This document shows, in pieces, positions 7,277-54,291 of a stretch of DNA of 64,000 nt. Below the pieces are notes generated by a model, which was given only the letters and a program-made list of their open reading frames with translations, was not told where the DNA came from and searched no databases. A program made the position numbers and the translations under genes. Source of the DNA: an uncultured Candidatus Saccharibacteria bacterium. GTDB taxonomy: Bacteria; Patescibacteriota; Minisyncoccia; UBA6257; 2-01-FULL-56-20. Position 1 is the first letter of the stretch. Each line of letters begins with the position of its first letter. The stretch is taken from NCBI GenBank assembly GCA_964409535.1, contig CAYPDQ010000001.1, forward strand, positions 22,993 through 86,992, in the 5' to 3' direction.

Positions 7277-8482
7277 TCACTTCGTCTCATACTGCTCCTC
7301 CACATAACCTTTGCGAAGCCAGGAGGGAAATCGGTATGTCCGCCCGAACCCGCCCATCTCTCTTATTATTTTCGGAATGACAAGGCTTCTGTGTTCCGTA
7401 CCAGAAAATAAACGCGCCTGATGTTCATGGTTTATACTAAGCAGATACTTTGAGCACCTTTTAACTTTGTTCAAATAATCCTCAACAACTTCCTTCCCCA
7501 TCTCAGGAAAGGAGTCCTGGTTAAAAACCAAACCATGCTTTTTGTTGCCGAATTCCCAATAGGGTAAGATGCGAATGGCCTTCCCCTCATCGGGTTCTCC
7601 GTACAGAACAAGCTTAGCGTCCGGCAGCGCTTTGATCAGATGCCACGCTGTCATCACATTCATAACCGGGAGATCAAAAAGAGAATAGTCCCGGAAGCCA
7701 AATCTATGCGCATATACTGCAACTTTACCCAGCCCACCTCCGATTTCCCCAACGGGGGTCTCACTCCCCACTATACTGCTAATTCTCCACGCTGCATAAA
7801 GAGATTGTAGGTCCCGGAATTCAAACAACCCGCTCCTTAGTTCCAATTTAAACAAACCCCCGTCAACCTCGGGCGGAGCGATTTTTATACTCAACTTCTT
7901 TTCTATCTTTTCCACCAACCAATCGGGGTCCGCGTAGATATTCTTCTTTGCAACGTATGGAATGACTGTTTCGTAGGGCAAAATATCCAACGCTTCGGCA
8001 AGCGAAACAAGTATATCTTTTATCAGCGCGGCTTCCCTCCTCCTCAAGTAAGAACTTTTTCTCAAACTCCGGTACTCGGCAACATTACCCGACACACCAT
8101 ATGTGGATTTCCACCGATGCATGTTAGAGAGATAATCCGCGAGAGATTGCGAATCTTCGTCAAGAAGTATTTTAAGCAGCTCACTATGGTACGTCTTCCT
8201 GTTATCGTCCCACGCATCCGGGTATGCTTTTTGTGGTGCATATTTCTCCTCATCCGAGGATGCCCTACGAAAGGCTCCTAAGATTCTCTCTGCTACGGCG
8301 CGGTCCCTCTCACTGGTGTTAAATATAGACACACTTAACTTGCCGTAAGGAAACCCTTCGGGCATAGGATGAAAAAAGAGGTTTCTGTCGTATCGGACGA
8401 AAAATCTTTTAAAGACCTTCATTAGAAGAAGAGGCATACCCCCTTCTTCCAATACGAACTTTATCCTTGAGAAAATTCCCAT
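7277..8482 (-). CDS. Class I SAM-dependent methyltransferase-like protein (putative sugar O-methyltransferase), paralog A
   Basis: 401 aa with an EIGGGLGK glycine-rich SAM-binding motif. About 50% identical to the divergently transcribed ORF at 8566-9786. Confidence 0.5.
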   Translation of the reverse strand: MGIFSRIKFVLEEGGMPLLLMKVFKRFFVRYDRNLFFHPMPEGFPYGKLSVSIFNTSERDRAVAERILGAFRRASSDEEKYAPQKAYPDAWDDNRKTYHSELLKILLDEDSQSLADYLSNMHRWKSTYGVSGNVAEYRSLRKSSYLRRREAALIKDILVSLAEALDILPYETVIPYVAKKNIYADPDWLVEKIEKKLSIKIAPPEVDGGLFKLELRSGLFEFRDLQSLYAAWRISSIVGSETPVGEIGGGLGKVAVYAHRFGFRDYSLFDLPVMNVMTAWHLIKALPDAKLVLYGEPDEGKAIRILPYWEFGNKKHGLVFNQDSFPEMGKEVVEDYLNKVKRCSKYLLSINHEHQARLFSGTEHRSLVIPKIIREMGGFGRTYRFPSWLRKGYVEEQYETK

Positions 8483-8565
8483 TCCATAAATTAAAAGTCG
8501 AATTTATCCGGTTGTAAACCCATTATTTGCGAGCCATGGAGCGCTCTGATAGGATTTAGACGAAA

Positions 8566-9788: not shown

Positions 9789-10874
9789 TTACAAAGGCAT
9801 CCCCATCATCCTGAATATATCCTCAAAACGCTTTTCCGTGGAGTGGTCGCGGATGGTGCGCTCGTAGCCCCGGCGCGCAATCTCCTCCCGCTCCCCGGGA
9901 TGAGCCAGATAATACCTTATCTTCTCCACTAAGTCTTTTTCGTCTTTATATACCACGATCTCTTCTCCAAGTTTGTAGTAATCCCGCAGGTCGTCCGCGT
10001 CCTCGGTAAGCTCGAACGTACCGCACGCGGGCACCTCAAAGTTCCTGGCTCTTACCCACGAATTCCGTTTCATAGACCACATCCGGACGTTGTCGTAGAA
10101 GTTCCAGATGTCCGGTTTGATGGGAAGTCCTCCTTCTCCCAAGTCTGCGCGACGCAAAAAGAGACGCACAATCGGCCGCCAGCCGACGTAAAACGGGGCT
10201 GTATTCAAAGACAGCACGATTTTACTTCGGTTGATAATGCCAACAAGCTCATCTTGGCTCACCGGCCCCTCCGGCCAACCGGTTCCCCGCACGAACACCG
10301 GTATGCCAGCATTTTTAACATAACTGATGACGCGCTGACGCGTCTTGTTCCAAAGACCGATAAAGCTTACATCGATGTCTTTTTTTCTGTTTTCCAGCTT
10401 CCTGAATTCCTCAAGATCCACGCCCGGTTGATGATGAATGACGTTGTTACACCCAATACTTTTATATTTTTTGACCGCGCGCGAATCGTAGGTCACAATC
10501 CACGTAAAATATTTGGCGACATGGCGGCCGAACCGCTCCCACCGCCATGTGTCGTCATCAGCGATGTAAACGAATGTTGTGAATTTCTGATTGCGCATTT
10601 TTTTGAAAAGTTCCCTGCCCCAATCGTTTTCGCTGAAGCCGGCAATACATACGTCGGGCTTCGCTCGCACGATATGTTCCCAGAGTTTCTTCCTTGCCTC
10701 CTCGCGTCCATAGGTAATAATTGCATCGTCAAAAAAGAAAGCATCCACCGTGTGGCCGCGCGGCTCCGCGGCTTTAGCGAGAGGCACTTGAAGGCGATAA
10801 TTCCCGTCAGCCACGCGAAGCTGTTTCCAGTCCCTGTCCCAGACGTATTTATATGTGACGATGAGGATCTTCAT
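9789..10874 (-). CDS. Glycosyltransferase (GT1-like / CgeB-DUF3880 family)
   Basis: Probable start at the internal ATG (MKILIVTYKY...). The C-terminal region matches the glycosyltransferase group 1 / CgeB family (E...L..Y..G..I). Confidence 0.55.
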   Translation of the reverse strand: MKILIVTYKYVWDRDWKQLRVADGNYRLQVPLAKAAEPRGHTVDAFFFDDAIITYGREEARKKLWEHIVRAKPDVCIAGFSENDWGRELFKKMRNQKFTTFVYIADDDTWRWERFGRHVAKYFTWIVTYDSRAVKKYKSIGCNNVIHHQPGVDLEEFRKLENRKKDIDVSFIGLWNKTRQRVISYVKNAGIPVFVRGTGWPEGPVSQDELVGIINRSKIVLSLNTAPFYVGWRPIVRLFLRRADLGEGGLPIKPDIWNFYDNVRMWSMKRNSWVRARNFEVPACGTFELTEDADDLRDYYKLGEEIVVYKDEKDLVEKIRYYLAHPGEREEIARRGYERTIRDHSTEKRFEDIFRMMGMPL

Positions 10875-11652
10875 GAGGCATATTCCTTTTGAAATTCTCA
10901 TATTCTTCAAGCCACGCGCCGAGCATAGCCGCGTTTTCTTTCCCGACGAGAGACAGCCCCAACATCTCGCGGACAATCGCCTCCTCATCGATCTCGGCAC
11001 GCGGGTCTTTCTCCGCCACTGCCAAGACATTTGGCATCGCATTGCCGCCGTACCGCTCGTAAAACGAATTCGGTGTTAGGCGCCCAAGCGGATTCAAAAT
11101 AGGCAAGTAGAGCGATTCGGGCAAGCGCGCAAATAACTTGCCGACGACGGGTAATTTTTGCGCGTGCTTCGCGACGCCATGCCAGTAGGAACGTATTTTT
11201 ATATTACGGAATCCGGTTTTGTGGAGCACGAATTTGAATTTCCGTTTGTCCCAAAAATCACGGTGTTCCGCCCAAGATGCTTCCTGTGACCCAAAAATGT
11301 GCCGCCCCAATTGGAAACGCCGCCGGAGCGAAGTGGCACGACAGTATTCACGGGCAGACATTTCAAAATCAGGCGTTTCAATGACGAGTATGCCTCTGGG
11401 CTTGAGCCACCGCCGCCAGTTGAGAAGTAAACCTAAAGCGACGGAACGCGTGAAATGTTCAAACAAGTGGTGACTTCGCACCTCATCGACGGTACCTTCG
11501 GGAAAAGACAGCGTCCGGATATCGGCATATCGGTCCGCCCTTGGACGCATTACGCTATGCTCGCTTGGCGGGAAATCAATATTCACATATCCCTCTAAAT
11601 ACTTTTCCCCGCTCCCCAGATGCAGTTTCACCGGCCGCTTTTGCATTTCCAT
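10849..11652 (-). CDS. Class I SAM-dependent methyltransferase
   Basis: 267 aa with a Methyltransf_11-like core (VLDLGCG-like region HLGSGEKYLEGYVNID). Overlaps the downstream GT start by 26 nt. Confidence 0.55.
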   Translation of the reverse strand: MEMQKRPVKLHLGSGEKYLEGYVNIDFPPSEHSVMRPRADRYADIRTLSFPEGTVDEVRSHHLFEHFTRSVALGLLLNWRRWLKPRGILVIETPDFEMSAREYCRATSLRRRFQLGRHIFGSQEASWAEHRDFWDKRKFKFVLHKTGFRNIKIRSYWHGVAKHAQKLPVVGKLFARLPESLYLPILNPLGRLTPNSFYERYGGNAMPNVLAVAEKDPRAEIDEEAIVREMLGLSLVGKENAAMLGAWLEEYENFKRNMPHEDPHRHI

Positions 11653-15413: not shown

Positions 15414-15437
15414 GGATGCGATAGGATAGGATAGGAT

Positions 15438-26010: not shown

Positions 26011-26088
26011 GGGTCTTTGCCCGCGAGGACGAGTCCCTTGGCGGCGAAGTCCGAGCGTCGCAAACACCTTAATTTTAACAAAATTGGC

Positions 26089-27174
26089 ATGGATCCGTTT
26101 CTAAAAAACATCCTGGAATTCAACCGCCAGCTTACGACGGCCGGGCTCCAGCTCTCCAACCTCAAGCGGCTGAAAAAAGGCGGCTATGACTCCGTTCTCA
26201 TAGTCGGAATGGGCGGCTCTGGCCTCGCCGGCGAACTTCTGAAAGATGTGCAGGAGGAATTGGGACTCAAGGTTCCGGTTTTCACCTGGAAAGATTACGG
26301 CCTGCCCGAACCGGAAACGTTCGGTGCAAAGAAACCGCTCTACCTCTTCGTCTCTTTCTCCGGCAACACCGAAGAAACACTCTCCGGCTTCAAATCTGCT
26401 CTAAAACCTAAAACCTATAACCTAAAACCTCATTCCATTGCGGCCGTTGCCCACGGCGGCGAACTCGCCCGCCTCGCGAAGCGCGCGGGAGCACCACTGG
26501 TTCTCTTTCCGGCCGCAGATCCCGTTAGAAGTCCGACATTCGGCCCCGCGAATGTCGGCAGAAACCGGGGGTTTCTTACTTCTAACGGGACAGACTTGAA
26601 TCCCAGGCAATATACTGGTAGGATGTTCTACGCACTGATCCAAGTACTCCGGGCCGCCCGCCTTATTTCTTCCGAGCCGCAGACCTACATCCGGCTCCAA
26701 CCCGCGTCTTTCAAAAAGGAGGGTGCATATCTCGCCAAACGCCTTAAGGGCAGGGTCGTGCTCCTCTACACCGACCGGCGAAGCCATGGCCTGGGCTATG
26801 TCTGGAAAGCTAAATTAAACGAAACCGCAAAGCAGCTCGCTTTCCTGAACGCCGTGCCTGAGATGAACCACAACGAGCTCACCGGCCTTGTTTTCCCAAA
26901 AACCAAGCTGGCCGCGCTATTCATAAGCGATACGTCCGCCCCTGCGGCCGGGGCAGGGCGGACGCGGAAAAGAATCCGGATCAATCTCAAACTTTTAAAG
27001 AAGAAAGGGGTGCAAGCAGAGGAAGTTCCGCTCCAGGGCAAGAGCCGGATGGAGAAGATGTGGAATTCCATAATGCTCGCGGACTGGACCGCATACGAAC
27101 TTGCCAAGATGAACGGCGCGGACCCGGCGGAGATCAAAATAGTTGAAGAGTTGAAAAGTTCGATGAAAAAATAA
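26089..27174 (+). CDS. Bifunctional phosphoglucose/phosphomannose isomerase (SIS domains)
   Basis: Start chosen at the internal ATG (MDPFLKNIL). SIS motifs GMGGSGLAGE and SFSGNTEET. Contains a heptamer-repeat insert (LKPKTYNLKP). Confidence 0.7.
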   Translation: MDPFLKNILEFNRQLTTAGLQLSNLKRLKKGGYDSVLIVGMGGSGLAGELLKDVQEELGLKVPVFTWKDYGLPEPETFGAKKPLYLFVSFSGNTEETLSGFKSALKPKTYNLKPHSIAAVAHGGELARLAKRAGAPLVLFPAADPVRSPTFGPANVGRNRGFLTSNGTDLNPRQYTGRMFYALIQVLRAARLISSEPQTYIRLQPASFKKEGAYLAKRLKGRVVLLYTDRRSHGLGYVWKAKLNETAKQLAFLNAVPEMNHNELTGLVFPKTKLAALFISDTSAPAAGAGRTRKRIRINLKLLKKKGVQAEEVPLQGKSRMEKMWNSIMLADWTAYELAKMNGADPAEIKIVEELKSSMKK

Positions 27175-27186: not shown

Positions 27187-27272
27187 GCCCAGGTGGTGGA
27201 ACTGGCAGACACGCAGCGTTCAGGGCGCTGTGGCCGCAAGGTCGTGGGAGTTCAAATCTCCCCCTGGGCACC
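27187..27272 (+). tRNA. tRNA-Leu (anticodon CAG), type II with long variable arm
   Basis: Folded by eye: acceptor GCCCAGG/CCTGGGC, 3-bp D-stem GTG/CAC, anticodon loop TTCAGGG, variable stem-loop, T-arm GGGAG-TTCAAAT-CTCCC, discriminator A then CC. Confidence 0.8.
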
Positions 27273-27278: not shown

Positions 27279-29030
27279 ATGATCAAAAAAACAATTAAAA
27301 CCAAAACGGTCTCTCCGCACGGGCGTCTGCACGTCAAGACGGCAAAGATAGCCGAAGACAAAGAGCCGCCGGTGCGCTGGGCGGCTTTGGGCGGCTTGGA
27401 GGAGATCGGCCGGAATATGATGTTCTTGGAGTACAAGAACGAGATCATCATAATTGACGTCGGCTTGCAATTCCCGGAGGAAGAAACACCCGGGGTGGAC
27501 TACATCATCCCCAACGTCTCTTATCTGGAGGCGAGGCGCGATAAGATCCGCGGCATCGTCATCACCCACGGCCACTACGACCACATCGGCGCCCTGCCCT
27601 ACGTTCTGGGGAAACTGGGCAACCCCCCGATATACGCCACCCAGCTCACCAAAGAAATAATCCTGAAGCGGCAGGAGGACTTCCCGAACATGCCCAAGCC
27701 GGTTTTCATCGTGGTCAAAGCCGGCGAGACCCACCAGCTTTCGGAACACTTCATCTTGGAGTTCTTCGCGGTGGAACACAACATTCCGGAGGGCGTAGGC
27801 ATGGTCGTAAGCACTCCGGCTGGCAAAGTTGTCCATCCCGGCGAGTTCAAATTTGACTACGACCGCGACGGCAAACCACGCAATATGGACGTCTGGGAAA
27901 ACGTCGGCAAGCAGGGCATCCACACCCTGTTCCTGGATTCCACCGGCGCGGAAGTCCCGGGTTGGTCCCTTTCCGAACGGGTGGTGGAAGAGGAGCTGGA
28001 GAAACTCTTCCGGGCGGCCAAGGGCAGGATAATCGTCGCGACTTTCGCCTCCCTCCTCGGCCGCATCGCGGAGATCGTGAAGATCGCCGAGCGTCTCGGC
28101 CGGCACATTGCTCTCTCCGGCTATTCCTTGAAAACCAACATGGATATCGCCTTGAGCTTGGGCTACGTCAAGGTAGAACAGGGTACCATAGTCCGGCTGG
28201 AAGACATCCACAAGTACCGGGATGACAAGCTCTTGATCCTCTCCACCGGCGCCCAGGGCGAACCGCGGGCAAGCCTGGTCCGGATCGCAAGCGGCGAGCA
28301 CAAACAGGTTACCTTAAAGAAAACGGATACCGTCATCCTTTCCTCGTCCATCGTCCCGGGGAACGAAGCCAGCGTCCAGATATTAAAGGACAATATCGCC
28401 CGCCAGTGCCCGAACGTTTTCCACTATAAGATGCTGGACATCCATTCGAGCGGCCACGCGCCGATAGAGGAATTAAAGACCGTGATGAAACTGGTGAAAC
28501 CGCATTTTTTCCTTCCGATCCACGGCTATTACTTTATGCGCATGCGGAACGCCCGCCACGCCCAGGAGGTCTTGGGACTGCCGCCGGAGAGAACCATCGT
28601 TGCCGACAACGGCCTAGTAGTAGAAATGCGCAAGGACAGGGTGGTGCTCACCGAAGAACAGGTGCCCGCCTCCTACGTGATGGTGGACGGCTTGGGTGTG
28701 GGCGACGTGGAAGAAGTCGTGCTGCGGGACCGCCGGAGCCTAGCCCAAGAGGGAATGGTCGTCGCCATCGTGACCATAGACCGCAACCGCGGCGGGCGTC
28801 TCCTAAAGAATCCGGACATCATCTCCCGCGGCTTCATCCTCCTCAAAGAGAACCAGGAAATTCTGGAAGGCATCCGCAAGCGCATCCGGGGCATCATTTC
28901 CCGCTTGCCCGCCCACCAGACAGTGGAACCGGACTATCTGAAGGCGCTCATCCGCGACCAGATCGGCCAGTTCCTTTATAACAAGACGAAACGCAGGCCG
29001 ATGATATTGCCCGTGGTTATAGAGATATAG
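27279..29030 (+). CDS. rnj: Ribonuclease J (metallo-beta-lactamase / beta-CASP)
   Basis: HGHYDHIG motif, beta-CASP and RMMBL regions. Start moved to ATG 27279 (MIKKTIKTK) so it does not overlap the tRNA. Confidence 0.85.
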   Translation: MIKKTIKTKTVSPHGRLHVKTAKIAEDKEPPVRWAALGGLEEIGRNMMFLEYKNEIIIIDVGLQFPEEETPGVDYIIPNVSYLEARRDKIRGIVITHGHYDHIGALPYVLGKLGNPPIYATQLTKEIILKRQEDFPNMPKPVFIVVKAGETHQLSEHFILEFFAVEHNIPEGVGMVVSTPAGKVVHPGEFKFDYDRDGKPRNMDVWENVGKQGIHTLFLDSTGAEVPGWSLSERVVEEELEKLFRAAKGRIIVATFASLLGRIAEIVKIAERLGRHIALSGYSLKTNMDIALSLGYVKVEQGTIVRLEDIHKYRDDKLLILSTGAQGEPRASLVRIASGEHKQVTLKKTDTVILSSSIVPGNEASVQILKDNIARQCPNVFHYKMLDIHSSGHAPIEELKTVMKLVKPHFFLPIHGYYFMRMRNARHAQEVLGLPPERTIVADNGLVVEMRKDRVVLTEEQVPASYVMVDGLGVGDVEEVVLRDRRSLAQEGMVVAIVTIDRNRGGRLLKNPDIISRGFILLKENQEILEGIRKRIRGIISRLPAHQTVEPDYLKALIRDQIGQFLYNKTKRRPMILPVVIEI

Positions 29031-32000
29031 CCAGCTTTACGCTTTTGCCGTTTATTCTTATCTCTTCCATGCCTGTCCCGACCTGCCCCGACTGAAACGT
29101 CGGGGCCGCAGCGTCGGGACTTTCGCCTTCGGAAACGCTCCGAAGGTAGGTTTTTTTACGGTCAAACAATTCCAGCGCTTTCTTAACGTCGGTGTCGTCG
29201 GTCTTATAGGTAAGCGCCGCCATTTCTCCCACCTTGAGTCCCTGCTTCTTGCGCAGTTCCTGAACTGCCCGTTCCAAAGCGCGCACCATACCTTCCAGGC
29301 GCAGCTCATCGGAAATCGAGGTGTCCAGATAGAAATTCAGAACCCGAGAGACCCCCGCCATCACTTCTATATTCTCCCCTTTCTCGCTCGAGAGGGTCGG
29401 GTCGAATTTCTTCACGTTCAACTCGCCCAAAAGTACCTGCATCAACTCCGCGCTGGGGGTCATATCTTCCTTGGTGAAGAACGCGAGGCGCGGCAGGGGC
29501 TGGCGCACCGGAACGTTCAGGGTTTTCCTCACCGCCTGGCCCAAGGACGCCGCTTCCCGGACGGTTGCCATATCCCGCAGGAGATCTTTCTCCTCCGGCG
29601 CAAGCTCTCTCGCTTCCGGCCAGTCCGAAAGATGCACCGATTCATCAGGTTTTAGGTTATAGGTTTTAGGTTTTAGATCCTGGTAGATAAGTTCGGAGAT
29701 ATACGGCATAACCGGTGCGATAACTTTGGAGGCGTTCAAAAGCGAGTGCCGCAGAACCGCGAAAAACTCCGTGTCCGTCCGGCCGCGGCTGCGGCGCAAG
29801 TACCAAGTGGAGAGATCGTCAACGTATTCGGAGATAATGCGCGTCGCGCGGACGGTATCGTATCGATCCAGATTTTCAGTCACTCCGTTAACTAACTCCT
29901 GGGTGCGTACGGCTATCCAGCGGTCAAGAATATTCGCGGTCTTCCCGGCCAAGCCGCCCGGCGGCGGCTCGTATCCCGCCTCCGCGGCGTATGTCTGATA
30001 ATAATTGAAGACGTTCCAGAGGATGAGGACCACCTTCCGGTACGTGTTCTGCACCTCTTTCTCGCTGAAGTTCAGATTATCCGCCTGCATCACCACCGAG
30101 TTCGTAAGATAGAAGCGCAACGCATCCACGCCGTATTTATTGATCACCTCCCACGGATCCGGGAAATTGCCTTTGGACTTGCTCATTTTGGAGCCGTCTT
30201 CGGCCAAAATCGTGCCGGTCGTGACCACGTTCTCAAACGGCGCCTTGCCGAAAAGGGCGTAGGAGACGACGTGCATCACGTAGAACCACGCCCGGGTCTG
30301 GGCGATGTATTCCGCCACGAACTGCGCCGGCAGGCGCTTGTCTCCCGACGCTCTCGGTCGGGACCCCGACTCCCGACTCGTCGGGACGTCGGGGAAAAAC
30401 TCCTTATTATCAAAAGGATAGTGATACTCCGCAAAGGGCATTGAGCCCGCTTCCACCCAGGAATCAAAGATTTCCTTTACCCGTCGCGCTTCCCCGCCGC
30501 AGGTCGGGCACTTTAAAACCACATCATCAATGTACGGCCGGTGGAGATCATCAATGCCCACGCTTATCTCAAACGGCTCTCCCGTCCTCGGATAGCCCAG
30601 CTCCGAGCCGTAGTACTTCTGGACCAACCACAGCGGGTCGCCATGGCCGACAATTAGAATCCTCTTGTTTTGGTAATTTTTATCCGCTTCCTTTATGAAG
30701 CTGACCATCCGCGCCTGGATCTCGGTCCATGTTTCCCCGCCCTCCGGCGCTTCCGTCCAACGGTCGCGTTTAGAAGCGAACTCTTCGTGATATTCTTTCT
30801 CACTCCTACCCTCAAAAGTGCCGGTGTTGTACTCCCGCAAGCGCTTGTCGGTCTTTGCCTCCACCCCAAGCACCTTGCCGACGATCTCGGCCGTACGCCT
30901 GGTTCTCAAAAAGTCGGAGGTGAATATTAGGTCCACGCCGCCCTTGGCCTTTATTTTCTCGGCAATTCCCTCCGCCTCTTTCACTCCTTTCTCCGTCAGA
31001 TCATATTTATCATTTTCTGTCCGTCCATTCACGACCTCCCGGACGTTCTTCTCCGCCTCTCCGTGGCGGGTGAAATAGAAAGTATTGGTGCTCAAGCCCA
31101 GTTCCTTAATGCTCCCCACCACAACCGGCGGGCAATTTTTATCACCTGCCTGCGCAGGCAGGCATTTCCAGACCGGAATCGGATTTCCCCAATAGCGGTT
31201 GCGGGAAATGTTCCAGTCCGGCGCGGATTCCACGCTTTTCTCATAGCGGCCGTGCTTCAAATGCTCCGGGAACCAGTTTATCTCCCTGGAGTTGGAGTCA
31301 ATCAGTTCTTTTTTCATCTTCTGGATGTTGATGAACCATGCCGGAATCGCATTGTAGTAGAGAGGATTGCCGCATCTCCAGCAGTGCGGATAGGAGTGGG
31401 TCACTTTTTCTTTGCGTAGAAGCAAGCCACGCTTCTCCAGGTCGGCGATTATGATTGAATCGGCATCTTTGAAATACTTGCCGCGCAGGAATTCCGGCGC
31501 CTTGTCGTTGAACTTGCCTCTGTCGTCCAGCATCGGCACGACCGGGAGCCCAACTTTCTGACCCAACTCGTAGTCCTCTTCGCCATAGACGACCGCAGTG
31601 TGCACGATGCCTGTGCCTTCCTCGGTGGAAACGAAGTCAGCTGCGTACACCTTAAAAGCGGCCTGCCCTTCGGAGCCTTGGCGAAGAATGGGGATGTCAA
31701 AAAGCGGTTCATACTCCAAACCGACGAGTTCCGAGCCCTTGAATTCTTCCACTATGTCATTGCGAGGCGCCGTAGGCACCGCGGCAATCCCTTGAGATTG
31801 TTTCCCGCCACTGCCCTGCATCGCGGTCGCAACGACGGCACTAACCCTATCTTTCGCTAAAATGTAAAACTCCTCCTCAACTCTAACTTTCACGTAATCA
31901 ATCTTTTCTCCCACCGCTAACGCAACGTTTCCAGGCAAGGTCCATGGTGTCGTAGTCCAAGCCAGAAGATAGGTGTTTGGTGTTAGGTTATAGGTTTTAG

Positions 32001-32643
32001 AATCACTTTTAACATTTGAGCTTTTAACCTTGAACTTCACAAAGACGGCGTCTTCCACGACGTCTTTGTATGAATTGTCCATCGCCACTTCAAAGTTGGA
32101 AACCGGCGTCTCGCATCTCGGGCAGTACATCAAAACCTTCCGGCCCTCGTACACCAGCCCTTTGTCGTAAATTTGCTTGAACGCCCACCAGACCGACTCC
32201 ATATAGTCCCTGTCCATCGTCTTGTAGGAGTTCTCAAAGTCAATCCAGCGCGCGATTCGCCGGACCATCTTCCCCCATTCGTCTGCGAACATAAGCACCT
32301 TCTCCCGGCAGGTGCGGTTGAATTTCTCTATCCCGATCTCTTCTATCTGCTTCTTGCCGGAGATGCCCAGTTCCCGCTCCACAACTTCTTCTATCGGCAG
32401 GCCGTGGCAGTCCCAGCCCCAGCGGCGACGGACGAAACGGCCCTTCATCGTCTGGTAGCGGGGAAAGAGGTCTTTGACGGTGGATGCCAAAATATGCCCG
32501 TAGTGCGGGAGGCCGGTAGCAAAAGGCGGCCCGTCGTAAAAAGTGTAGGGCTTGCCGCCTTTAGTCTTCTCTAATGACTTTTGGAAAACCCGGTTCTTTT
32601 CCCAGAAGTCCAGTATCTTTTCTTCCAGCTCTTTCGGATTCAT
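29017..32643 (-). CDS. ileS: Isoleucyl-tRNA synthetase (type 2, eukaryote-like) with an inserted histidine-phosphatase (PGAM-like) domain
   Basis: 1208 aa. HYGH/KMSKS class I motifs, editing domain and zinc-finger CPTCGG. An insert of about 170 aa with an RHGE His-phosphatase signature lies between ...VVVGSIKELG and GIDDLHRPY. Confidence 0.9.
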   Translation of the reverse strand: MNPKELEEKILDFWEKNRVFQKSLEKTKGGKPYTFYDGPPFATGLPHYGHILASTVKDLFPRYQTMKGRFVRRRWGWDCHGLPIEEVVERELGISGKKQIEEIGIEKFNRTCREKVLMFADEWGKMVRRIARWIDFENSYKTMDRDYMESVWWAFKQIYDKGLVYEGRKVLMYCPRCETPVSNFEVAMDNSYKDVVEDAVFVKFKVKSSNVKSDSKTYNLTPNTYLLAWTTTPWTLPGNVALAVGEKIDYVKVRVEEEFYILAKDRVSAVVATAMQGSGGKQSQGIAAVPTAPRNDIVEEFKGSELVGLEYEPLFDIPILRQGSEGQAAFKVYAADFVSTEEGTGIVHTAVVYGEEDYELGQKVGLPVVPMLDDRGKFNDKAPEFLRGKYFKDADSIIIADLEKRGLLLRKEKVTHSYPHCWRCGNPLYYNAIPAWFINIQKMKKELIDSNSREINWFPEHLKHGRYEKSVESAPDWNISRNRYWGNPIPVWKCLPAQAGDKNCPPVVVGSIKELGLSTNTFYFTRHGEAEKNVREVVNGRTENDKYDLTEKGVKEAEGIAEKIKAKGGVDLIFTSDFLRTRRTAEIVGKVLGVEAKTDKRLREYNTGTFEGRSEKEYHEEFASKRDRWTEAPEGGETWTEIQARMVSFIKEADKNYQNKRILIVGHGDPLWLVQKYYGSELGYPRTGEPFEISVGIDDLHRPYIDDVVLKCPTCGGEARRVKEIFDSWVEAGSMPFAEYHYPFDNKEFFPDVPTSRESGSRPRASGDKRLPAQFVAEYIAQTRAWFYVMHVVSYALFGKAPFENVVTTGTILAEDGSKMSKSKGNFPDPWEVINKYGVDALRFYLTNSVVMQADNLNFSEKEVQNTYRKVVLILWNVFNYYQTYAAEAGYEPPPGGLAGKTANILDRWIAVRTQELVNGVTENLDRYDTVRATRIISEYVDDLSTWYLRRSRGRTDTEFFAVLRHSLLNASKVIAPVMPYISELIYQDLKPKTYNLKPDESVHLSDWPEARELAPEEKDLLRDMATVREAASLGQAVRKTLNVPVRQPLPRLAFFTKEDMTPSAELMQVLLGELNVKKFDPTLSSEKGENIEVMAGVSRVLNFYLDTSISDELRLEGMVRALERAVQELRKKQGLKVGEMAALTYKTDDTDVKKALELFDRKKTYLRSVSEGESPDAAAPTFQSGQVGTGMEEIRINGKSVKLAISL

Positions 32644-32900
32644 CCCGTTAGAGACAGGAAACGCCTTAAGCGGTTCTCGAGGTAGCGTTTGCCTGGGCCA
32701 CTCTTTAGGTACTTTTCTCGCGACCTTGCGTCATCTTCATTGAGACACGCCTCGTAGTATACGAGGTTCCAGGGGGCACGGCTCTTAGTCCAGGTTGATT
32801 TGCCTTCGTTATGCTGCTTAAGACGTTTCCGTAAGTCGTTCGTGCTACCGGTGTACCAATAGCTGCTTTTCTTGCTTTGGATAACATAGGTGTAGTACAT
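32640..32900 (-). CDS. GIY-YIG nuclease-family protein (about 86 aa), bounded by terminal inverted repeats
   Basis: MYYTYVIQSKKSSYWYTGSTNDLRKRLKQHN is a canonical GIY-YIG motif. The frame is open up to GTG 32930. 14-bp inverted repeats ATCCCGTTAGAGAC lie at 32641-32655 and 32907-32921. Confidence 0.7.
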   Translation of the reverse strand: MYYTYVIQSKKSSYWYTGSTNDLRKRLKQHNEGKSTWTKSRAPWNLVYYEACLNEDDARSREKYLKSGPGKRYLENRLRRFLSLTG

Positions 32901-32921
32901 AAGCTTGCGGTCTCTAACGGG
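32641..32921. mobile_element. Small TIR-bounded element carrying the GIY-YIG ORF (putative founder of a MITE-like family)
   Basis: The left end TCATCCCGTTAGAGACAGGAAAC and the right end AAGCTTGCGGTCTCTAACGGGAT are inverted copies. The same ends recur without the ORF at 46780-46899, 51438-51512 and, degenerate, at 50906-50936. Confidence 0.55.
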
Positions 32922-32943
32922 ATTAAGCACGAATCTAAAAATA

Positions 32944-34707
32944 TCAGATTTTTTCCGGTGCGGAAATACCGAGGAGGCCGAGGCCGGTTTTCATAACACC
33001 GGCGGCTACGGCGACGAGCGCAAGCCGCGCCTCCCGCCTTTCCTTGTCTTCATCTTTGAGTATCGGCGTGGATTCATAGTAGGAATTAATCGCGTTCGCG
33101 AGTTCGTAGAGATAAACGGCGACGGCATTCGGGGCGCACGCCGCAGCCGCGGATTTCACTGCCTCCGGGAACTCCGCCATTTTCCTGATTAGCGCGAGTT
33201 CATTCTCTTCAATAAGGCGCGCTGCGTTCCACGTTCCACGTTCCACGCCCCGTGATTTGCGCAAGATACTGCGCAAACGTGCATAGGTGTATTGGAGATA
33301 CGGCCCGCTGTCACCCTGGAAAGAGATTGATTTGTCCATGTCAAAAACAATGTCCCGGCCGACGCCCTGTTTCAAGATGGAGTAACGGATGGCGGCCAGG
33401 GCCACTTTTTCTTCTATCTCTTCGCGTTCTCTTTTGGTAAGCTCCTTGCGTTCGGCTACTTTTTTAGCCACCGCTTCTTTCAGCTGGTCAATCAGCGCCT
33501 CCGCGGTGATAACCTCGCCGGTGCGGGAGGACATTTTACCCGAAGGTAAGCGCATCATGCCGTGGCTAAGATGGACTGTTTTCTCCGCCGCTTCCGGCAC
33601 TACCTGCTCCATCGCTTTCAAAACCACTCTGAAGTATTCATTGATTTCGTTTCCGGTCACGATAAACGATGCGTCCGGGTGATACAGGTCAAATTTTTTC
33701 TGGTTCAGTCCCAGCTCCTTGGCCTCATACGTCGGCAAGCCCTGGGAGTTTATAAACACTCTGTTGTGCAGGCCGTACTTCTCGCCGGGAAAGATAATCG
33801 CGCCTTCACTTTTTTGAAACACCTCCGGATGGGCCTTAACGAGCTTCACACCCACCGGTCCAACTTCGCTTTCAAAGAAATAATGGACGAACTTCGTGCC
33901 CAGCCGCCTATAAATCGTCTCAAAATAGTCTAAGCTCCACTTGCGGCCGAGATCGTATAATCTGTTTATTTCTTTGTCTGAACGGTTGTATACCTTGACG
34001 TTTATATCCTCCACTTGCTTCCTTAGCTCATCCTTATCTGGACCACCCCTCAAAGAACCGCTGATATCTTTCATATCGTAAGCGCCAGAGCCAACAGTAT
34101 ATGCATTAGCGAGATATCTTATTTTCTTATCTAGAGCGTCTCCTTTTCTGGGCAAGCTGCCTTGCAAAATATAGAGAATACCCCAAATGGTTTTAGCCAC
34201 ATGCAAACCAACGTCGCCCTGGTAATTCACGCGCAAGACCTTGGCCCCGGCGGCCTCGTGGAGGCGGGCGATGGCTTCGCCGATGACATTGGTCATGAGA
34301 TGCCCAATGTGAAACTGCTTGAACGGGTTGGGGTCGGTGTACTCCACCATCACTTTCTTGCCTTTGAGCAAATCCAGACGGCCATAATCGCGGCTTGCGG
34401 CAATCTGCGCGAACTCCTCTTGGATGGCTTTCTCCGACAGCCAAAAGTTTATGAATCCCGGCGGGGCGACCTGAACATTTTGAATAAATCTCTGCGGGGC
34501 GACTTTCCGGACTCTCTCCGCGATTTCTTCAGCCACCGCCATCGGGCTGCGGCCCTTTTCCTTGGCCAAACGCAAGGCGAGGTTCGTGGAGTAGTGGCCA
34601 AATTCAGATTTAGCAGCCAGAGACAAGTCAAAATCGGCATGTTTGCCTGCCTGCGCAGGCAGGCCTGCCGCCTTCTTCAAGAGTTGAGCAAGCTTTCGCC
34701 GTATCAC
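32944..34707 (-). CDS. argS: Arginyl-tRNA synthetase
   Basis: 587 aa with the HIGH-region (FHIGHLM), Add-1 N-domain and DALR anticodon-binding domain. Confidence 0.9.
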   Translation of the reverse strand: MIRRKLAQLLKKAAGLPAQAGKHADFDLSLAAKSEFGHYSTNLALRLAKEKGRSPMAVAEEIAERVRKVAPQRFIQNVQVAPPGFINFWLSEKAIQEEFAQIAASRDYGRLDLLKGKKVMVEYTDPNPFKQFHIGHLMTNVIGEAIARLHEAAGAKVLRVNYQGDVGLHVAKTIWGILYILQGSLPRKGDALDKKIRYLANAYTVGSGAYDMKDISGSLRGGPDKDELRKQVEDINVKVYNRSDKEINRLYDLGRKWSLDYFETIYRRLGTKFVHYFFESEVGPVGVKLVKAHPEVFQKSEGAIIFPGEKYGLHNRVFINSQGLPTYEAKELGLNQKKFDLYHPDASFIVTGNEINEYFRVVLKAMEQVVPEAAEKTVHLSHGMMRLPSGKMSSRTGEVITAEALIDQLKEAVAKKVAERKELTKREREEIEEKVALAAIRYSILKQGVGRDIVFDMDKSISFQGDSGPYLQYTYARLRSILRKSRGVERGTWNAARLIEENELALIRKMAEFPEAVKSAAAACAPNAVAVYLYELANAINSYYESTPILKDEDKERREARLALVAVAAGVMKTGLGLLGISAPEKI

Positions 34708-40939: not shown

Positions 40940-41091
40940 AAACGAGGAAAAGCATAACCAAGAGGATACGGATAACCCGACGGGGCAAGATCATCCGGCG
41001 GCCGATGGCGGTGGATCATTTCCGCACCCGCAAGAGTAAAAAGAGCATCCGCAGCAAACGCAAAACCCTCGGTTTGGATTTCCCGCTCTAA
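40936..41091 (+). CDS. rpmI: 50S ribosomal protein L35
   Basis: A 51-aa basic ORF (MKTRKSITKRIRITRRGKIIRRPMAVDHF...) missing from the ORF track because it is under 60 aa. ATGA overlap with infC and the expected position between infC and rplT. Confidence 0.75.
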   Translation: MKTRKSITKRIRITRRGKIIRRPMAVDHFRTRKSKKSIRSKRKTLGLDFPL

Positions 41092-41117
41092 AACCTAACA
41101 CCTAATCACTAATTAGT

Positions 41118-42193: not shown

Positions 42194-43923
42194 GCGTTTA
42201 TTACGTCTTTTTTCTCCGCCCAGCCGCGGCGGGCCTGGGCAATGCCGTATTCCAGATAGTCAAAATGGTTCGGGGCATGCGCATCGGAATCAACCGCAAG
42301 TTTCACCCCTACTGCGACGCATTCCCGAATGTGGTCGTCTTTCAAATCCAGGCGATCCGGGTAGGCGTCTATTTCCATAATCGTCCCGGTTTTCTTGGCG
42401 GTCTGTATGAGTTCCGCCATATCCACCTCGTAGGCCGCGCGCCGCTCTATCACCCGGCCAGTCGGGTGGAAGATTATGTCCACATGCCGGTTCGCCATCG
42501 CCCGTTTTATCCGCTCGGTTTGCTCCGTTTTCGGCAAGCTGAAGTAGGAATGGACCGACGCGCCGACCACATCCAGTTTCGCCAATACCGCATCTGGCAA
42601 ATCCAGCGAGCCGTCTTTCAATATATCACACTCCGTTCCCTTTAGGACGCGGAACGTGGAACGTGAAGCGCGGAGCGCGCGATTGACCAGGTCAATTTCA
42701 GCCATTTGCTTCAAAATCCGCTTCTCGTCCAAACCGTGGGTCATCGCCAGGCGCTTGGTATGGTCGGTAATCGCGATGTACTTCAACCCGCGGGCCATGG
42801 CGGCCTTGGCCATATCCAGGATAGACGCGTTGCCGTCGGTCCAGTCGGTCTGAACCTGCAAATCGCCTTGTAAATCCTCGTAGCCAATTAGTTTGGGCAA
42901 GGCGTGTTTCTTCGCCAGTTCAATTTCGCCCATATTTTCCCGCATCTCCGGCGGGATGTGGTCCATTCCCAAGGCCTTATACAGCTCTTCCTCGGTTCTG
43001 CCGGCGATCTGGCGTTTGCCCTTCCACAGGCCGTACTCGTTCAATTTATACCCCTTGTTCATCGCGATCTGGCGGAGGGCGACGTTGTGATCCTTGGAGC
43101 CGGTGAAGTAATTCAAGGCCGCGCCATAGGACTCCGCCGGCACCACCCGCAGGTCCACGTCCAGGCTCGCCTCGCCGAAGCCTCCGGCGTAGCGCGGGCC
43201 GGAGGCGATCTTTATCGCGGACTTGGTCTCGCCGTGGGCGTAGACCCGCACCACCTGCGGCATGTTCACAAAATAGTCCATCATCGCTTTCGGTTTGCGG
43301 GATACCGCAAGCACGTCCACGTCACCGATGGTCTCCTTCCGCCGCCGGACGGAGCCAGCGACGACGAGTTTCTCCACCCCCGGCACGCGCCGGAGCATCT
43401 CCTCCATCTTACGGATCTCCGGTTCGGAAAAGCCCAAAAGCCGCCGGCCGCCGGACTTTTTCAGGAACTCAATCCCCTTCAAGATGTTCTCTTCCGATTT
43501 CTTCCCGAAGCCGGCGAGGTTGCGGATCTTCCCCGCCTTCGCCGCCTTTTCCAGGTCGGCGAGAGTCTTCACGCCCAGCTTCTGATAGAGCTTTTTTATG
43601 GATTTCGGCCCCAGTCCTTCCACCGTGGTGAGGGTCGCGAGGTCCACTGGCGTTTTTTTCTTCAACTCCGCATGGTACTTCACTTTGCCGGTTTTCAGAT
43701 ACTCCTCGATCTTCTCCGCGATACTCGCACCAACGCCGGGAATATCCAGGAGCGCCTTCATACTGTCACGTTTGTAAACGTCGGCGACGCTCTCTTCCAT
43801 CCCGCTCACAATCTGCGCAACCTTCTCGTAGGCGCGGGGCTTGAACGCCACGTCCTGCATCTCCAAGTACTCCCCGATCTCGGCGAGGATCCGCGCGATC
43901 TCCTGGTTGGAAACGTGTCTCAT
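42157..43923 (-). CDS. DNA polymerase X family with C-terminal PHP domain (PolX)
   Basis: 588 aa. HhH N-domain, Pol-beta-like nucleotidyltransferase core (GS.RR.KETIGDVD) and PHP histidinol-phosphatase motifs (HTK, H.H). Confidence 0.8.
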   Translation of the reverse strand: MRHVSNQEIARILAEIGEYLEMQDVAFKPRAYEKVAQIVSGMEESVADVYKRDSMKALLDIPGVGASIAEKIEEYLKTGKVKYHAELKKKTPVDLATLTTVEGLGPKSIKKLYQKLGVKTLADLEKAAKAGKIRNLAGFGKKSEENILKGIEFLKKSGGRRLLGFSEPEIRKMEEMLRRVPGVEKLVVAGSVRRRKETIGDVDVLAVSRKPKAMMDYFVNMPQVVRVYAHGETKSAIKIASGPRYAGGFGEASLDVDLRVVPAESYGAALNYFTGSKDHNVALRQIAMNKGYKLNEYGLWKGKRQIAGRTEEELYKALGMDHIPPEMRENMGEIELAKKHALPKLIGYEDLQGDLQVQTDWTDGNASILDMAKAAMARGLKYIAITDHTKRLAMTHGLDEKRILKQMAEIDLVNRALRASRSTFRVLKGTECDILKDGSLDLPDAVLAKLDVVGASVHSYFSLPKTEQTERIKRAMANRHVDIIFHPTGRVIERRAAYEVDMAELIQTAKKTGTIMEIDAYPDRLDLKDDHIRECVAVGVKLAVDSDAHAPNHFDYLEYGIAQARRGWAEKKDVINAWPLQKTLKMLK

Positions 43924-46454: not shown

Positions 46455-46782
46455 AGAAGATCAAGATTGGAAGAACGAGTATCCAGACAAGATACGCTGC
46501 GGCGAAGATCGCCGCCCAAAAAAGATACACGCCTACACCGATGATTATCCGCACGGAGCGGAAAATTACGCCCAAGACCCGGCCGATCACGGAGTAGTCC
46601 TTGTACAGGGGTTGGAAGAAGTGTTTCAGAGTTATTTTCACTGCAAATGTCCGGTCCAGATATTCCAAAAGAGCGGTGAACGCATAAGCAAATCGCCGGG
46701 AAGCGTCCACGTACCAATGGTGAAAGAAGTCGGTCAGCCGGAAGAAAAACCGCCCGACAAGATATACCAGGGCAAAGTCCAT
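46435..46782 (-). CDS. Hypothetical membrane protein (2-3 TM)
   Basis: Start taken at ATG 46780-46782 (MDFALVY...), which lies inside the left TIR of a MITE copy. Confidence 0.35.
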   Translation of the reverse strand: MDFALVYLVGRFFFRLTDFFHHWYVDASRRFAYAFTALLEYLDRTFAVKITLKHFFQPLYKDYSVIGRVLGVIFRSVRIIIGVGVYLFWAAIFAAAYLVWILVLPILIFYAFRSF

Positions 46783-46899
46783 CCCGTTAGAGGCAGGAAA
46801 CTTTCGTTTCCGAAGGTTTTGCAAGCCGGTGCGACCACGGCTGTTTCTCCGCCCTGTGCACTATTACCCCACACACAAGCTTGCGGTCTCTAACGGGAT
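46780..46899. mobile_element. MITE-like, ORF-less derivative of the GIY-YIG TIR element
   Basis: CATCCCGTTAGAGGCAGGAAAC ... AAGCTTGCGGTCTCTAACGGGAT. Both ends are nearly identical to the ends at 32641 and 32921, with about 75 bp of unrelated interior. Confidence 0.55.
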
Positions 46900-50298: not shown

Positions 50299-51417
50299 CT
50301 AATTTACTACAAAGTAATAGACTTCGTAAACCGCGCCGAGGATGAAGACGAGTACCAGGAGATTGACCAGAAGCTTTTGGGCCGCGCTGAACGCAAGCGC
50401 ACGCTTACCCACGAGGAGGATCAGGAGGTACTCCAAGCCAAGGAACACGCCCCCGGCAAGACCGAGAACCTTCAAAAAATCGCCGAAGCCCGCGAGCAAG
50501 AGAAGAGGCGGCAAGAGAAACACCACCGCCGCAGCCAAAAGCCGCGAAGAGCCGAGGTCGTGAACCAGAGAGTTTCTTATCTCCAAGCCAATAGGGATGT
50601 AAGAAGTCCAGATAGCGAAAAACCCCAGAACCACGACCGACAGAAATTTCCACGCTGGCCACTCTCCCAGCCCGCTTACCGTGTCCGGCGTGACCGCAGA
50701 GATAGTTCCAAGTACACCCACGACGAAAAGAAGGTACAAGAAAGCAGCCGCGTAAATCCCTGCGGTCATTGCCCTGCGGGAACTCCCGGACGCCTGCCCC
50801 GCGCGTTTGCTGTAATCGAACGCGGGCTCCACCGCCGTCCAGGCGGCAAGCGAGAAAAGAACCGGGCCGAACGGCAGGAAAATCTCTTTCCAATTGATCG
50901 CCGCGAATCCCGTTAGAGAGTTTTTCTCTAATGGAACGAAAACGCCGAAGAAAACCAAGCCGATTATAAGCGCCATCATCACTGCGCCGAGGAATTCGGA
51001 GAACAAAAGCCGCCGCAGGCCCAAGAGAATGGGGAGTGAACCTGCAAGCCAGAAGAGGAACGTTCCCAAAGTTCTCGTGCCGGGACGGAGGAGTTCGGAA
51101 AATTCCCCGGCGAGTATAAGATAAGTGACGAGCGCCAAGGTCAGGCCTCCGATTATGACCACAACTCCGAAAATCCTCCCGCCAGTCCCAAAATATCTCG
51201 CCGTGAGTCCCAGAAGGCGCTTACTCCCGCCATCCGCCTCCAAAACCCGATAGTACAGGGAGTGGGCGAAGGACAAGAAAAATGCGATTACCGTGAGGTA
51301 CAAGACGCCAAGGAGCCAGCCCGACCGGAGAAACACGTAGGGTAAGGAAAAAAGACCTGCGCCAACCGCGGTCGCTGCGACCAGCACCGCTATCCACACG
51401 AAACGTCCTACTTTCAT
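50299..51417 (-). CDS. APC-superfamily-like amino-acid permease (10-11 TM)
   Basis: 372 aa, polytopic. Contains an in-frame copy of the TIR motif (PLEKNSLTGF) at 50906-50936. Confidence 0.45.
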   Translation of the reverse strand: MKVGRFVWIAVLVAATAVGAGLFSLPYVFLRSGWLLGVLYLTVIAFFLSFAHSLYYRVLEADGGSKRLLGLTARYFGTGGRIFGVVVIIGGLTLALVTYLILAGEFSELLRPGTRTLGTFLFWLAGSLPILLGLRRLLFSEFLGAVMMALIIGLVFFGVFVPLEKNSLTGFAAINWKEIFLPFGPVLFSLAAWTAVEPAFDYSKRAGQASGSSRRAMTAGIYAAAFLYLLFVVGVLGTISAVTPDTVSGLGEWPAWKFLSVVVLGFFAIWTSYIPIGLEIRNSLVHDLGSSRLLAAAVVFLLPPLLLLAGFGDFLKVLGLAGGVFLGLEYLLILLVGKRALAFSAAQKLLVNLLVLVFILGAVYEVYYFVVN

Positions 51418-51437: not shown

Positions 51438-51512
51438 ATCCCGTTAGAGGCAGCCCGCCCTAAAGGCCCCTCCGGGGCGCGCTTGCGCGCGGGCTCGGCC
51501 TCTAAACGGGAT
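51438..51512. mobile_element. MITE-like copy of the TIR element (75 bp)
   Basis: ATCCCGTTAGAGGC ... GCCTCTAAACGGGAT flanking a GC-rich palindromic interior. Confidence 0.45.
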
Positions 51513-52404: not shown

Positions 52405-52498
52405 GAGTTAAAAGTTTAAAAATCAAAATGCAAAGTTTAGGAATCGTTCCGCTTTGCGGAACTCGTTAATTTTTAACTTTGATATTTTCATTTTACAT

Positions 52499-53878: not shown

Positions 53879-53983
53879 TATATCACACCCGGTTCTGCCC
53901 TTGACATTTGGTGTGTTTTTTAATACAATTTAGCCCGAATTGGATTCGCTCGTTGACCACTTAACTCACACGCGGGAGGTCGT

Positions 53984-54280
53984 ATGCGTTGTCGTCCGGA
54001 AGTTTCCCAAGGGTGCGTCCGGTTCACGACCGGCGCGAGCGTCGTCACCTACCGGCTCGGCCCCAGCGGCCGGGTGGTGAAGGCGAGTCAGGTTGACTTC
54101 GCGCCGGACTGCAGCCCCAGCGGGATGGAACTGCGGAAGTTCGAGCATCAGGCCGCAGCTATCCTGCACAGGCAGAGACGCGAGAACGAAGCGCGACCCA
54201 AGCGGCGGGATCGCGCTACGCAAACCAAGCCGGGCACGCACGCCTGGCGCAACGGGACGGCCACGGCGCGGCTGTTCTGA
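53984..54280 (+). CDS. Hypothetical protein in a high-GC islet
   Basis: GGGAGG Shine-Dalgarno 6 nt upstream of the ATG. Arg-rich and low complexity. About 66% GC against about 55% in the surroundings. Confidence 0.3.
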   Translation: MRCRPEVSQGCVRFTTGASVVTYRLGPSGRVVKASQVDFAPDCSPSGMELRKFEHQAAAILHRQRRENEARPKRRDRATQTKPGTHAWRNGTATARLF

Positions 54281-54291
54281 AAGGAGTTTGT

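Follow-up and report, generated by a model that had tools for sequence, protein, structure and literature searches.

An in-frame (TAAAACC)n heptanucleotide repeat in essential genes of a Candidatus Saccharibacteria bacterium and in many probable genomes of the candidate phyla radiation

Heptamer arrays, reading frame and host loops

The 64,000-nt stretch of DNA analysed here (the window) belongs to contig CAYPDQ010000001.1 of an uncultured Candidatus Saccharibacteria bacterium and carries five short tandem arrays of the heptanucleotide TAAAACC, which we call family F1. Four of the five lie in frame in coding sequence, namely in the PGI/PMI gene, twice in ileS and in murE, and the remaining one occupies the junction between rpmI and rplT (Table 1). 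A sequence-only reading of the window had proposed all five copies as members of one dispersed heptamer family that enters housekeeping genes without breaking their frame, and they are indeed present, with Pfam confirming the hosts. Every copy (5/5) is sense-oriented relative to the local transcript. Within IleS the array of site 2 is found in a loop of the anticodon-binding region preceding SVHL and the array of site 1 in the hairpin preceding YLLAWTTTPW. At the junction the first unit of the array provides rpmI with its stop codon TAA (41089-41091), and the array fills the 26-nt spacer preceding rplT, which is only about 3 nt long in the relative L249.

A chance or compositional origin of the arrays was ruled out by shuffles. 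The F1 14-mer with up to two mismatches has 12 matches in the window against 0.62 expected, regions matching (TAAAACC)3 at 17 or more of 21 positions number five against 0.05 in codon shuffles, and period-7 arrays of any unit number six against 0.1 expected. Among the periods 4-12 scanned in the window none other than 7 was enriched, and Tandem Repeats Finder (TRF) reported period 7 with 4.3-4.4 copies at four window loci. Taking the heptamer arrays of all families in the window together, 6 of 8 are located within open reading frames (ORFs). An assembly artefact was ruled out as well: window positions 52126-59022, the murE array included, recur with 100% identity in two independent Logan assemblies (L246, L247), so that at least this array is not artefactual, and such arrays occur in more than 100 unrelated contigs. 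An Rfam scan of the window at gathering threshold returned only the tmRNA and one tRNA, and no known RNA family at the arrays.

Pure (TAAAACC)n has one stop codon per 21 nt in every frame of both strands, and no coding copy of the window retains an in-frame TAA: PGI and ileS site 2 have TAT in its place, ileS site 1 has TAT twice, and murE has CAA and TAC. The variant unit thus falls exactly where the sequence-only reading had seen it, and the substitution at each in-frame TAA agrees with its view that the frame is selectively maintained. This view holds in part only, as the TATAACC unit was also found in non-coding arrays of other phyla and is therefore not solely the product of selection after insertion. 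Read in sense the arrays give L-K-P-K-T-x-N, and an antisense reading would give G-F-R-F-x-V-L. The arrays are 25-31 nt long and have no inverted repeat. Their sense RNA is free of G and unstructured, and the four coding copies show minimum free energies (MFE) of 0 to -2.5 kcal/mol with z-scores of at least 0.

As for the position in the folded protein, the AlphaFold2 (AF2) model of PGI, built with 79 sequences, has a mean predicted local distance difference test score (pLDDT) of 90.1 and in it LKPKTYNLKP (aa 122-131) sits where helix 112-122 ends and continues through a short helix into the loop before strand 134-138, with a pLDDT of about 88. The expectation that the copies map to surface loops is thus borne out for PGI by a helix-to-strand connection in a confident model. 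Alignments of PGI, IleS and MurE likewise locate the arrays at variable-loop positions. Over 57 non-redundant public host proteins the residues +2 to +6 past the array are hydrophobic (p = 1.2e-5), and the arrays therefore lie directly ahead of beta-strands. Helix-to-strand loops of alpha/beta folds face away from the active sites, and placement there fits a filtering by tolerance.

Table 1: F1 arrays, their host genes and further repeats and elements of the window.
Feature	Position	Strand	Remarks
F1 array, PGI/PMI	26401-26430	+	CTAAAACCTAAAACCTATAACCTAAAACCT = C-TAAAACC-TAAAACC-TATAACC-TAAAACC-T; encodes LKPKTYNLKP
Host gene, bifunctional PGI/PMI	26017-27174	+	bact-PGI_C SIS domain; Pfam, orthologs
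F1 array, ileS site 2	29647-29676	-	30-mer identical to that of PGI; LKPKTYNLKP, aa 990-999
F1 array, ileS site 1	31970-32000	-	partly degenerate, TAAAACC TATAACC TAACACC AAACACC TAT..; SKTYNLTPNTY, aa 215-225
Host gene, ileS with inserted His_Phos_1 domain	29017-32643	-	Pfam
F1 array, murE	54748-54778	-	TAAAACC CAAAACC TAATACC TAAAACC TAC..; in frame, encodes SKTQNLIPKTYK
Host gene, MurE-type Mur ligase	54579-55892	-	Pfam
F1 array, rpmI-rplT junction	41088-41112	+	begins in the last rpmI codons
CGTTCCA/TGGAACG array	33225-33247		3.3 copies, in frame in argS; TRF, period-7 scan, Pfam
CGTTCCA-family array	42647-42679		in frame in PolX-PHP gene; orientation relative to transcription opposite to the argS copy
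CTACMTA array	56490-56527	+	intergenic, ruvA-rpsT; orthologous array in L250 at 8483-8514
73-nt element in PGI	26519-26591	+	terminal inverted repeats of 12-13 bp, ATCCCGTTAGAAGT...ACTTCTAACGGGA; two inner hairpins
Elements of the same family as the 73-nt one	32642-32923; 46781-46899; 51438-51512; 50907-50936		closing stem ATCCCGTTAGAG...CTCTAACGGGAT
9-nt tandem repeat	57785-57827		TATAGGACC x 4.8, in frame in CTP synthase (pyrG GATase domain)
GATAG array	15420-15437		3.6 copies, adjoins a gene start
tRNA-Leu(CAG), 86 nt	27187-27272	+	ARAGORN; PGI-RNase J gap

Orthologous sites and distribution of the arrays

The loops of PGI, IleS and MurE were compared with their orthologs, the best source-named relatives of all three being metagenome-assembled genomes (MAGs) of Doudna-, Lipton- or Wolfebacteria type. 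The length of the PGI loop is constant throughout the close clade. At the orthologous site L002 has a 30-mer identical to that of the window, L245 has the decayed array CTAAAACCCGAAACCCGCGGCCTAAAACC, i.e. CTAAAACC-CGAAACC-CGCGGCC-TAAAACC, which reads LKPETRGLKP, and L243 has an unrelated sequence of equal length and no array; in more distant orthologs the loop is 4-5 aa shorter. At site 2 of IleS the window is 4 aa longer than L002 (LNRRAETP, no array) and most orthologs, and L001, with an IleS about 81% identical to that of the window when aligned globally, has a degraded array there that is of comparable length (KTKTQNLKSE). The hairpin of site 1 is hypervariable, and the arrays that L001 and L002 have in it are longer or decayed. 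The MurE loop of the window exceeds that of relatives with 77-80% identity (AKPNLKLHK, the DNA itself being array-like) by 3 aa; L248 has a shorter, decayed array that reads AKPNLKLHK. The MurE of L250 (69% identical) carries an array of the same length as the window, built of TACYACC units and giving the peptide PTTYHLPPTTYK, with C in place of the A of the window in every unit, and this unit matches arrays of L250 itself located 1.8 kb upstream and adjoining rpsT.

At common sites, relatives at 70-80% identity vary in how many units they have, in the type of unit and in the degree of decay. Boundaries and unit numbers are variable too, with 3-6 units, ragged partial units and no target-site duplication. 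The density amounts to 0.9-1.7 arrays per 10 kb in the window, L002, L248 and L250, and no heptamer arrays were counted in L243, L249, L001 and L245. With length differences of 0, +3, +4 and +5 aa a simple insertion of 21 nt (7 aa) is ruled out. The idea that the copies had been inserted into their genes holds only in part: additional residues are seen in murE and at ileS site 2, but clean insertions were not found and the loop length in the PGI clade is unchanged. According to these alignments the heptamer arrays in the loops of PGI, IleS and MurE predate the divergence of the lineages and were rewritten in register, some being decayed and some perfect now. Similar peptides at the corresponding positions of orthologs had been named as a finding that would speak against insertion, and they are partly present, not as an ordinary ancestral peptide but because the loop already carried a heptamer array before these lineages diverged. 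The decayed arrays of L245, L001 and L248 moreover argue that the encoded peptide is not constrained.

At the nucleotide level the PGI genes of the window and L002 are 76% identical overall, and share a 47-nt identical run composed of the 30-mer and 17 nt downstream of it. This is the longest identical run in the gene, its length was reached in 7 of 20000 permutations (p ~3.5e-4), and the two arrays agree at every synonymous position. Such identity within a gene of 76% identity points to concerted evolution (slippage, misalignment or conversion) under selection. The 20-mer used for the metagenome scan described below was found at orthologous sites of TIM (four lineages, locus GC 35-59%), ValS, MurE and RsmI (three lineages each) and PGK and TsaD (two each), with flanks merely 56-80% identical.

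Recurrence of the motif outside the window, as predicted for a genuine repeat family, turned out to be wide in both public genomes and metagenomes. Searching for TAAAACCTAWAACCTAAAACC in a single genome of each species, a set without the source genome, gave at least 120 stretches, and a metagenome scan for AAAACCTATAACCTAAAACC gave at least 123 arrays, both counts being lower bounds. Among the genome matches listed, pure arrays are non-coding in cyanobacteria, Bacteroidota, Desulfobacterales, Acidobacteriota, archaea and the candidate phyla radiation (CPR), with the TAAAACC unit present in Chamaesiphon, Moorena, Trichodesmium and other cyanobacteria. The same list contains TAT-interrupted arrays within long ORFs in L018, L044, L067, L083, L084 and L027, all encoding ..PKTYNLKP.., and the first five of these are Patescibacteria, Yanofskybacteria, Saccharibacteria or Paceibacterota MAGs, L027 being labelled just 'bacterium'. 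The pure arrays of loci labelled as Patescibacteria (L013, L014, L059, L094) are all non-coding among these matches.

The 123 metagenome arrays listed, all TAT-interrupted, include 25 with the full 30-mer. Of the 123, 55 are part of sense ORFs of at least 100 aa and 17 more of sense ORFs of 50-99 aa, and not one of the 123 is covered by an antisense ORF of at least 100 aa; the query 20-mer leaves exactly one frame open per strand. By Pfam the hosts include TIM, TsaD, TsaE, an RsmI-type methylase, PGK, UvrA, RNase HII, a PEP-utilising enzyme, IspG and a class II aminoacyl-tRNA synthetase, and BLAST against the IleS of the window added IleS and related class I aminoacyl-tRNA synthetases. Further hosts resemble ValS, MurE and prepilin-type leaders by sequence motifs alone, and the peptide also occurs within cleaved leaders of the latter type (L027, L207). 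Low GC content, groundwater samples and contexts identical to contigs of named Patescibacteria MAGs (L018 = L212, L067 = L224) suggest that the metagenomic hosts likely are CPR bacteria as well. The loci L150 and L238 (QFFQNLLKPKTYNLKPDELK), which resemble the site-2 array of ileS in a distant lineage, proved to be UvrA and not IleS.

The related loci, 933 kb in total, contain 119 heptamer unit families in 354 arrays, many of them inside ORFs; 126 of the arrays owe their inclusion to the search itself. Viral contigs carry solely pure, non-coding TAAAACC arrays, and a phage vector was rejected on this ground. Three IMG/VR contigs of about 2.5 kb each (L252, L256, L276) show 13-18 perfect TAAAACC units at both ends in direct orientation and are probably small circular elements with one long array.

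Unrelated odd inserts were seen in the same loops of the MurE orthologs P0298 and P0300 and the IleS orthologs P0010, P0013, P0035 and P0020 (e.g. CHSGPDPESRFQNLDSRFRSPRR, ATRHSPLATRNNHYSPSETRDPSGE). They look like translations of other repeat families, and colonisation of loops by repeats therefore seems to be general in CPR proteins.

Proposed concerted evolution and competing explanations

The closest known kind of F1 is the heptanucleotide class of long simple sequence repeats (SSRs), whose tandem and dispersed architecture it shares except that F1 is mainly coding. Two reports summarise heptamers as the over-represented class of long SSRs in many bacteria, a bias attributed tentatively to polymerase slippage, and mention three tandem heptanucleotides in Calothrix PCC 7601 as cyanobacterial short tandemly repeated repetitive sequences (STRRs) (PMC4692102, PMC4679880). 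Like these, F1 consists of at least three head-to-tail 7-nt units, is found at dispersed loci of one unit next to several other unit families per genome, and its unit forms pure arrays in intergenic DNA. STRR families are however described as mainly intergenic and ORF-poor, whereas 4/5 F1 copies and 55/123 of the listed metagenome arrays are in frame in long ORFs, several of which encode housekeeping enzymes. The 49 four-heptamer elements of Geobacter metallireducens, located both inside genes and in the spacers separating them (PMC2700814), resemble F1 in having about four tandem heptamers per locus, in being dispersed over intragenic and intergenic sites and in occurring more than once per gene (cf. 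ileS), but they are GC-rich and interpreted as regulatory RNA elements, and reading frame, orthologous sites and recurrence across lineages are unreported for them (PMC2700814). TAACTGA direct repeats are common to Beggiatoaceae, cyanobacteria and Bacteroidetes by a transfer route that is not known (PMC4679880), and the GGGNATC repeats of Xanthomonas and Nostoc prefer about four units and sometimes overlap stop codons (PMC4692102). Both are similar to F1 in that one heptamer spans scattered phyla in short arrays near ORF starts or stops, the overlap with stop codons recalling the rpmI copy; they differ in being mostly in 5' untranslated regions (UTRs) or intergenic, and GGGNATC forms G-quadruplexes in contrast to the G-free, unstructured sense RNA of F1. 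Contingency SSRs for phase variation, perfect repeats whose unit gain or loss switches a surface, restriction-modification or virulence gene, do not describe F1, as the hosts are essential housekeeping genes and the arrays are mid-gene, interrupted and without length variation between assemblies. In the literature on heptamer repeats in Patescibacteria/CPR and on the TAAAACC unit we found no in-frame heptamer arrays in CPR, which does not prove their absence.

We lean towards regarding F1 as a heptanucleotide SSR family (TAAAACC)n, akin to the cyanobacterial STRRs, that evolves in concert under selection. In the CPR it occupies transcribed spacers and permissive helix-to-strand loops of essential enzymes, in this genome and in many likely CPR genomes. 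It behaves as a self-homogenising DNA repeat and not as an ordinary protein segment, its DNA being near-identical while the surrounding genes diverge, and the combination of perfect arrays in some lineages, decay elsewhere and unit turnover in register is the signature of concerted evolution and not of a conserved peptide. Slipped or misaligned replication inside an array, together with template switches or gene conversion among the arrays of a genome, would repeatedly rewrite adjacent sequence in the 7-nt register toward the unit dominant in that genome, and selection would purge frameshifts, stops and poorly tolerated peptides. Arrays surviving this would be left in sense orientation only and in loops preceding beta-strands, the encoded peptide being a passenger and not a functional module. 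The sorting seen among the genome matches listed, with pure arrays non-coding and five of the six TAT-interrupted arrays in ORFs coming from Patescibacteria-type MAGs, speaks for this model.

Several points weigh against it. No conversion or slippage event was directly observed, and the two assemblies of the same population (L246, L247) show neither length nor sequence polymorphism and are thus uninformative on the slippage rate. Slippage by one unit would be lethal in these genes, which leaves only 21-nt steps or length-neutral rewriting, and the length differences listed above match neither of the two. RecA-type conversion between loci would normally call for more homology than the roughly 30 nt available. 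Local slippage alone also fails to explain why TAAAACC dominates in distant CPR and is present in cyanobacteria, Bacteroidota and viruses. Finally, the metagenome results of identical sequence at the same site were ascertained by an exact-match search, which is blind to the frequency of decayed or alternative versions, and the CPR origin of the metagenomic hosts is an indirect assignment.

Alternatively, F1 might be a discrete tiny mobile element, either the 30-mer or a 21-nt super-unit TATAACC-TAAAACC-TAAAACC, pasted into genes by some enzyme like the Rickettsia palindromic elements (RPEs) or cyanobacterial small dispersed repeats. The window indeed has two exact copies of the 30-mer, separated by 3.2 kb and placed in unrelated genes without flanking similarity, and the 30-mer is also found in L002, L027 and the metagenome arrays mentioned above; the rpmI-rplT copy adds about 23 nt compared to L249; and the PGI of the window holds a genuine palindromic in-frame insertion (see below), so that the genome tolerates such events. 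We nevertheless consider this explanation unlikely, since boundaries are unfixed and unit numbers variable, terminal inverted repeats, target duplications and secondary structure are missing, the PGI clade keeps its loop length and has decayed arrays at the same sites, the murE loop of relatives holds different unit types at equal length, and no candidate enzyme was identified. RPEs, to which the sequence-only reading had compared F1, were according to Ogata et al. (2000) reportedly palindromic, about 100-150 bp long and cleanly absent from orthologs. Being a dispersed repeat in frame in essential genes at structurally tolerant positions is common to both, but F1 is 25-31 nt long, non-palindromic and tandem and overlies pre-existing variable loops. 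With unstructured arrays (no inverted repeat, a fold of 0 kcal/mol) and no clean presence or absence relative to orthologs an RPE-like palindrome is ruled out; the analogy is a loose one, and the heptanucleotide SSR/STRR families are closer (PMC4692102, PMC4679880, PMC2700814).

Another possibility is that the nucleotide sequence acts as a signal, either as an uptake-sequence-like motif spread by transformation-biased gene conversion or as a DNA or mRNA site for a protein with a 7-nt register, coding copies being found where the peptide is tolerated. The uptake signal sequences (USS) and DNA uptake sequences (DUS) also sit in tolerant parts of coding regions, and Findlay and Redfield (2009) are said to have found them in poorly conserved protein segments and in frames with tolerated peptides; F1 is similar as a nucleotide-level motif kept across species in such segments. 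Both within lineages and between them the arrays are far more identical than their flanks, also in genomes of higher GC content where the AT-rich array stands out, the identical patch in PGI reaches 17 nt past the array, the retention of arrays in some lineages and their decay in sisters resembles changing uptake 'dialects', and the sense orientation of all copies gives a G-free, unstructured RNA. We still hold such a signal to be doubtful. USS and DUS are single fixed motifs in both orientations at roughly 1 per kb, whereas F1 has a low density (5 per 64 kb, ~0.08 per kb) and the tandem, variable-length architecture with long pure intergenic arrays that is typical of SSRs and not of a fixed motif, so that F1 is not an uptake sequence in the established sense. 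In addition TAAAACC forms non-coding arrays in unrelated phyla and viruses, several other heptamer units behave alike in these genomes, and we know of neither a binding protein or uptake bias for the array nor of any uptake bias in CPR.

A more far-reaching version, to which we give little credence, would be a lineage-restricted, sequence-specific process that actively writes or restores canonical (TAAAACC)n with TATAACC in loops of essential genes across the CPR; this could be uptake-sequence-like biased gene conversion during transformation or the templated synthesis of heptamer repeats by an enzyme. Protein loops of these reduced genomes would in that case undergo continuous overwriting by a DNA-level drive common to distant lineages. 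That the peptide (K)PKTYNLKP itself is selected as an interaction, localisation or processing tag, with the repeat-like DNA as a by-product of codon choice, we regard as very improbable even though it recurs in dozens of unrelated enzymes and is well ordered in the PGI model (pLDDT ~88), as close relatives swap it freely (LKPETRGLKP, IKEKGFKLQA, AKPNLKLHK, PTTYHLPPTTYK), the synonymous positions shared by the window and L002 are not required by selection on a peptide, one F1 copy is non-coding and pure arrays are common in spacers, the peptide also ends up inside the cleaved prepilin-type leaders of L027 and L207, and non-repeat codons encoding it in many lineages have consistently been absent so far.

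Heptanucleotide repeats, the most over-represented long SSRs of bacteria, are described as avoiding coding sequence. In the present data one heptamer array lies in frame in IleS, ValS, MurE, TIM, PGK, PGI, TsaD and UvrA of apparently many CPR genomes, with recurrent sites and conservation of the nucleotide sequence. The feature of the window itself is modest, but the general pattern is unexpected and a testable handle on how heptamer repeats spread. With the diverging host gene as neutral background, the arrays offer a natural system for measuring repeat homogenisation, and they provide a DNA-level source for many odd loop insertions in CPR proteins. Caution is therefore needed in the annotation, alignment and phylogenomics of CPR marker genes, as array segments are convergent or converted and not homologous. 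A dedicated drive, by uptake bias or templated synthesis, would, should there be one, add a new mechanism by which sequences spread through genomes.

Other repeats and features of the window and its relatives

Besides F1 the window carries further heptamer arrays (Table 1). CGTTCCA/TGGAACG, the unit of the in-frame arrays in argS and the PolX-PHP gene, is free of stop codons in all six frames, unlike TAAAACC. CTACMTA/CCTACYA arrays were seen in L250 at 8406-8514 and 10317-10356, and such units fill the murE loop of L250 where the window has TAAAACC. The ruvB-LTD spacer of L248 (2061-2205) contains an inverted heptamer pair, (AGTCAGG)n followed by (CTTGACY)n, which could form a long hairpin.

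The truly RPE-like object of the window is the 73-nt element in PGI. It is an in-frame insert of 25 aa (DPVRSPTFGPANVGRNRGFLTSNGT) with an RNA MFE of -42 kcal/mol (z = -6.9), is present in L002 with loop changes only and absent from all 49 other aligned PGI orthologs, and is disordered in the AF2 model (pLDDT <50). Elements of the same family have variable interiors of 30 to 282 nt, all fold stably, and a copy was found in L250 at 11331-11447. Two members end exactly at a start codon (TCTAACGGG-ATG), namely that of ileS and that of a minus-strand gene at ~46782. None of the elements matched Rfam at gathering threshold, and they could be elements similar to miniature inverted-repeat transposable elements (MITEs) or stems sequestering the 5' UTR.

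The His_Phos_1 domain of IleS (aa 523-676) is inserted in the catalytic/editing region, an architecture shared by more than 100 of the 120 listed orthologs, the named ones being Patescibacteria-type MAGs. The tRNA-Leu(CAG) downstream of PGI was not reported by Rfam at gathering threshold; it was predicted by ARAGORN and overlaps the TTG start that was mechanically assigned to the RNase J ORF.

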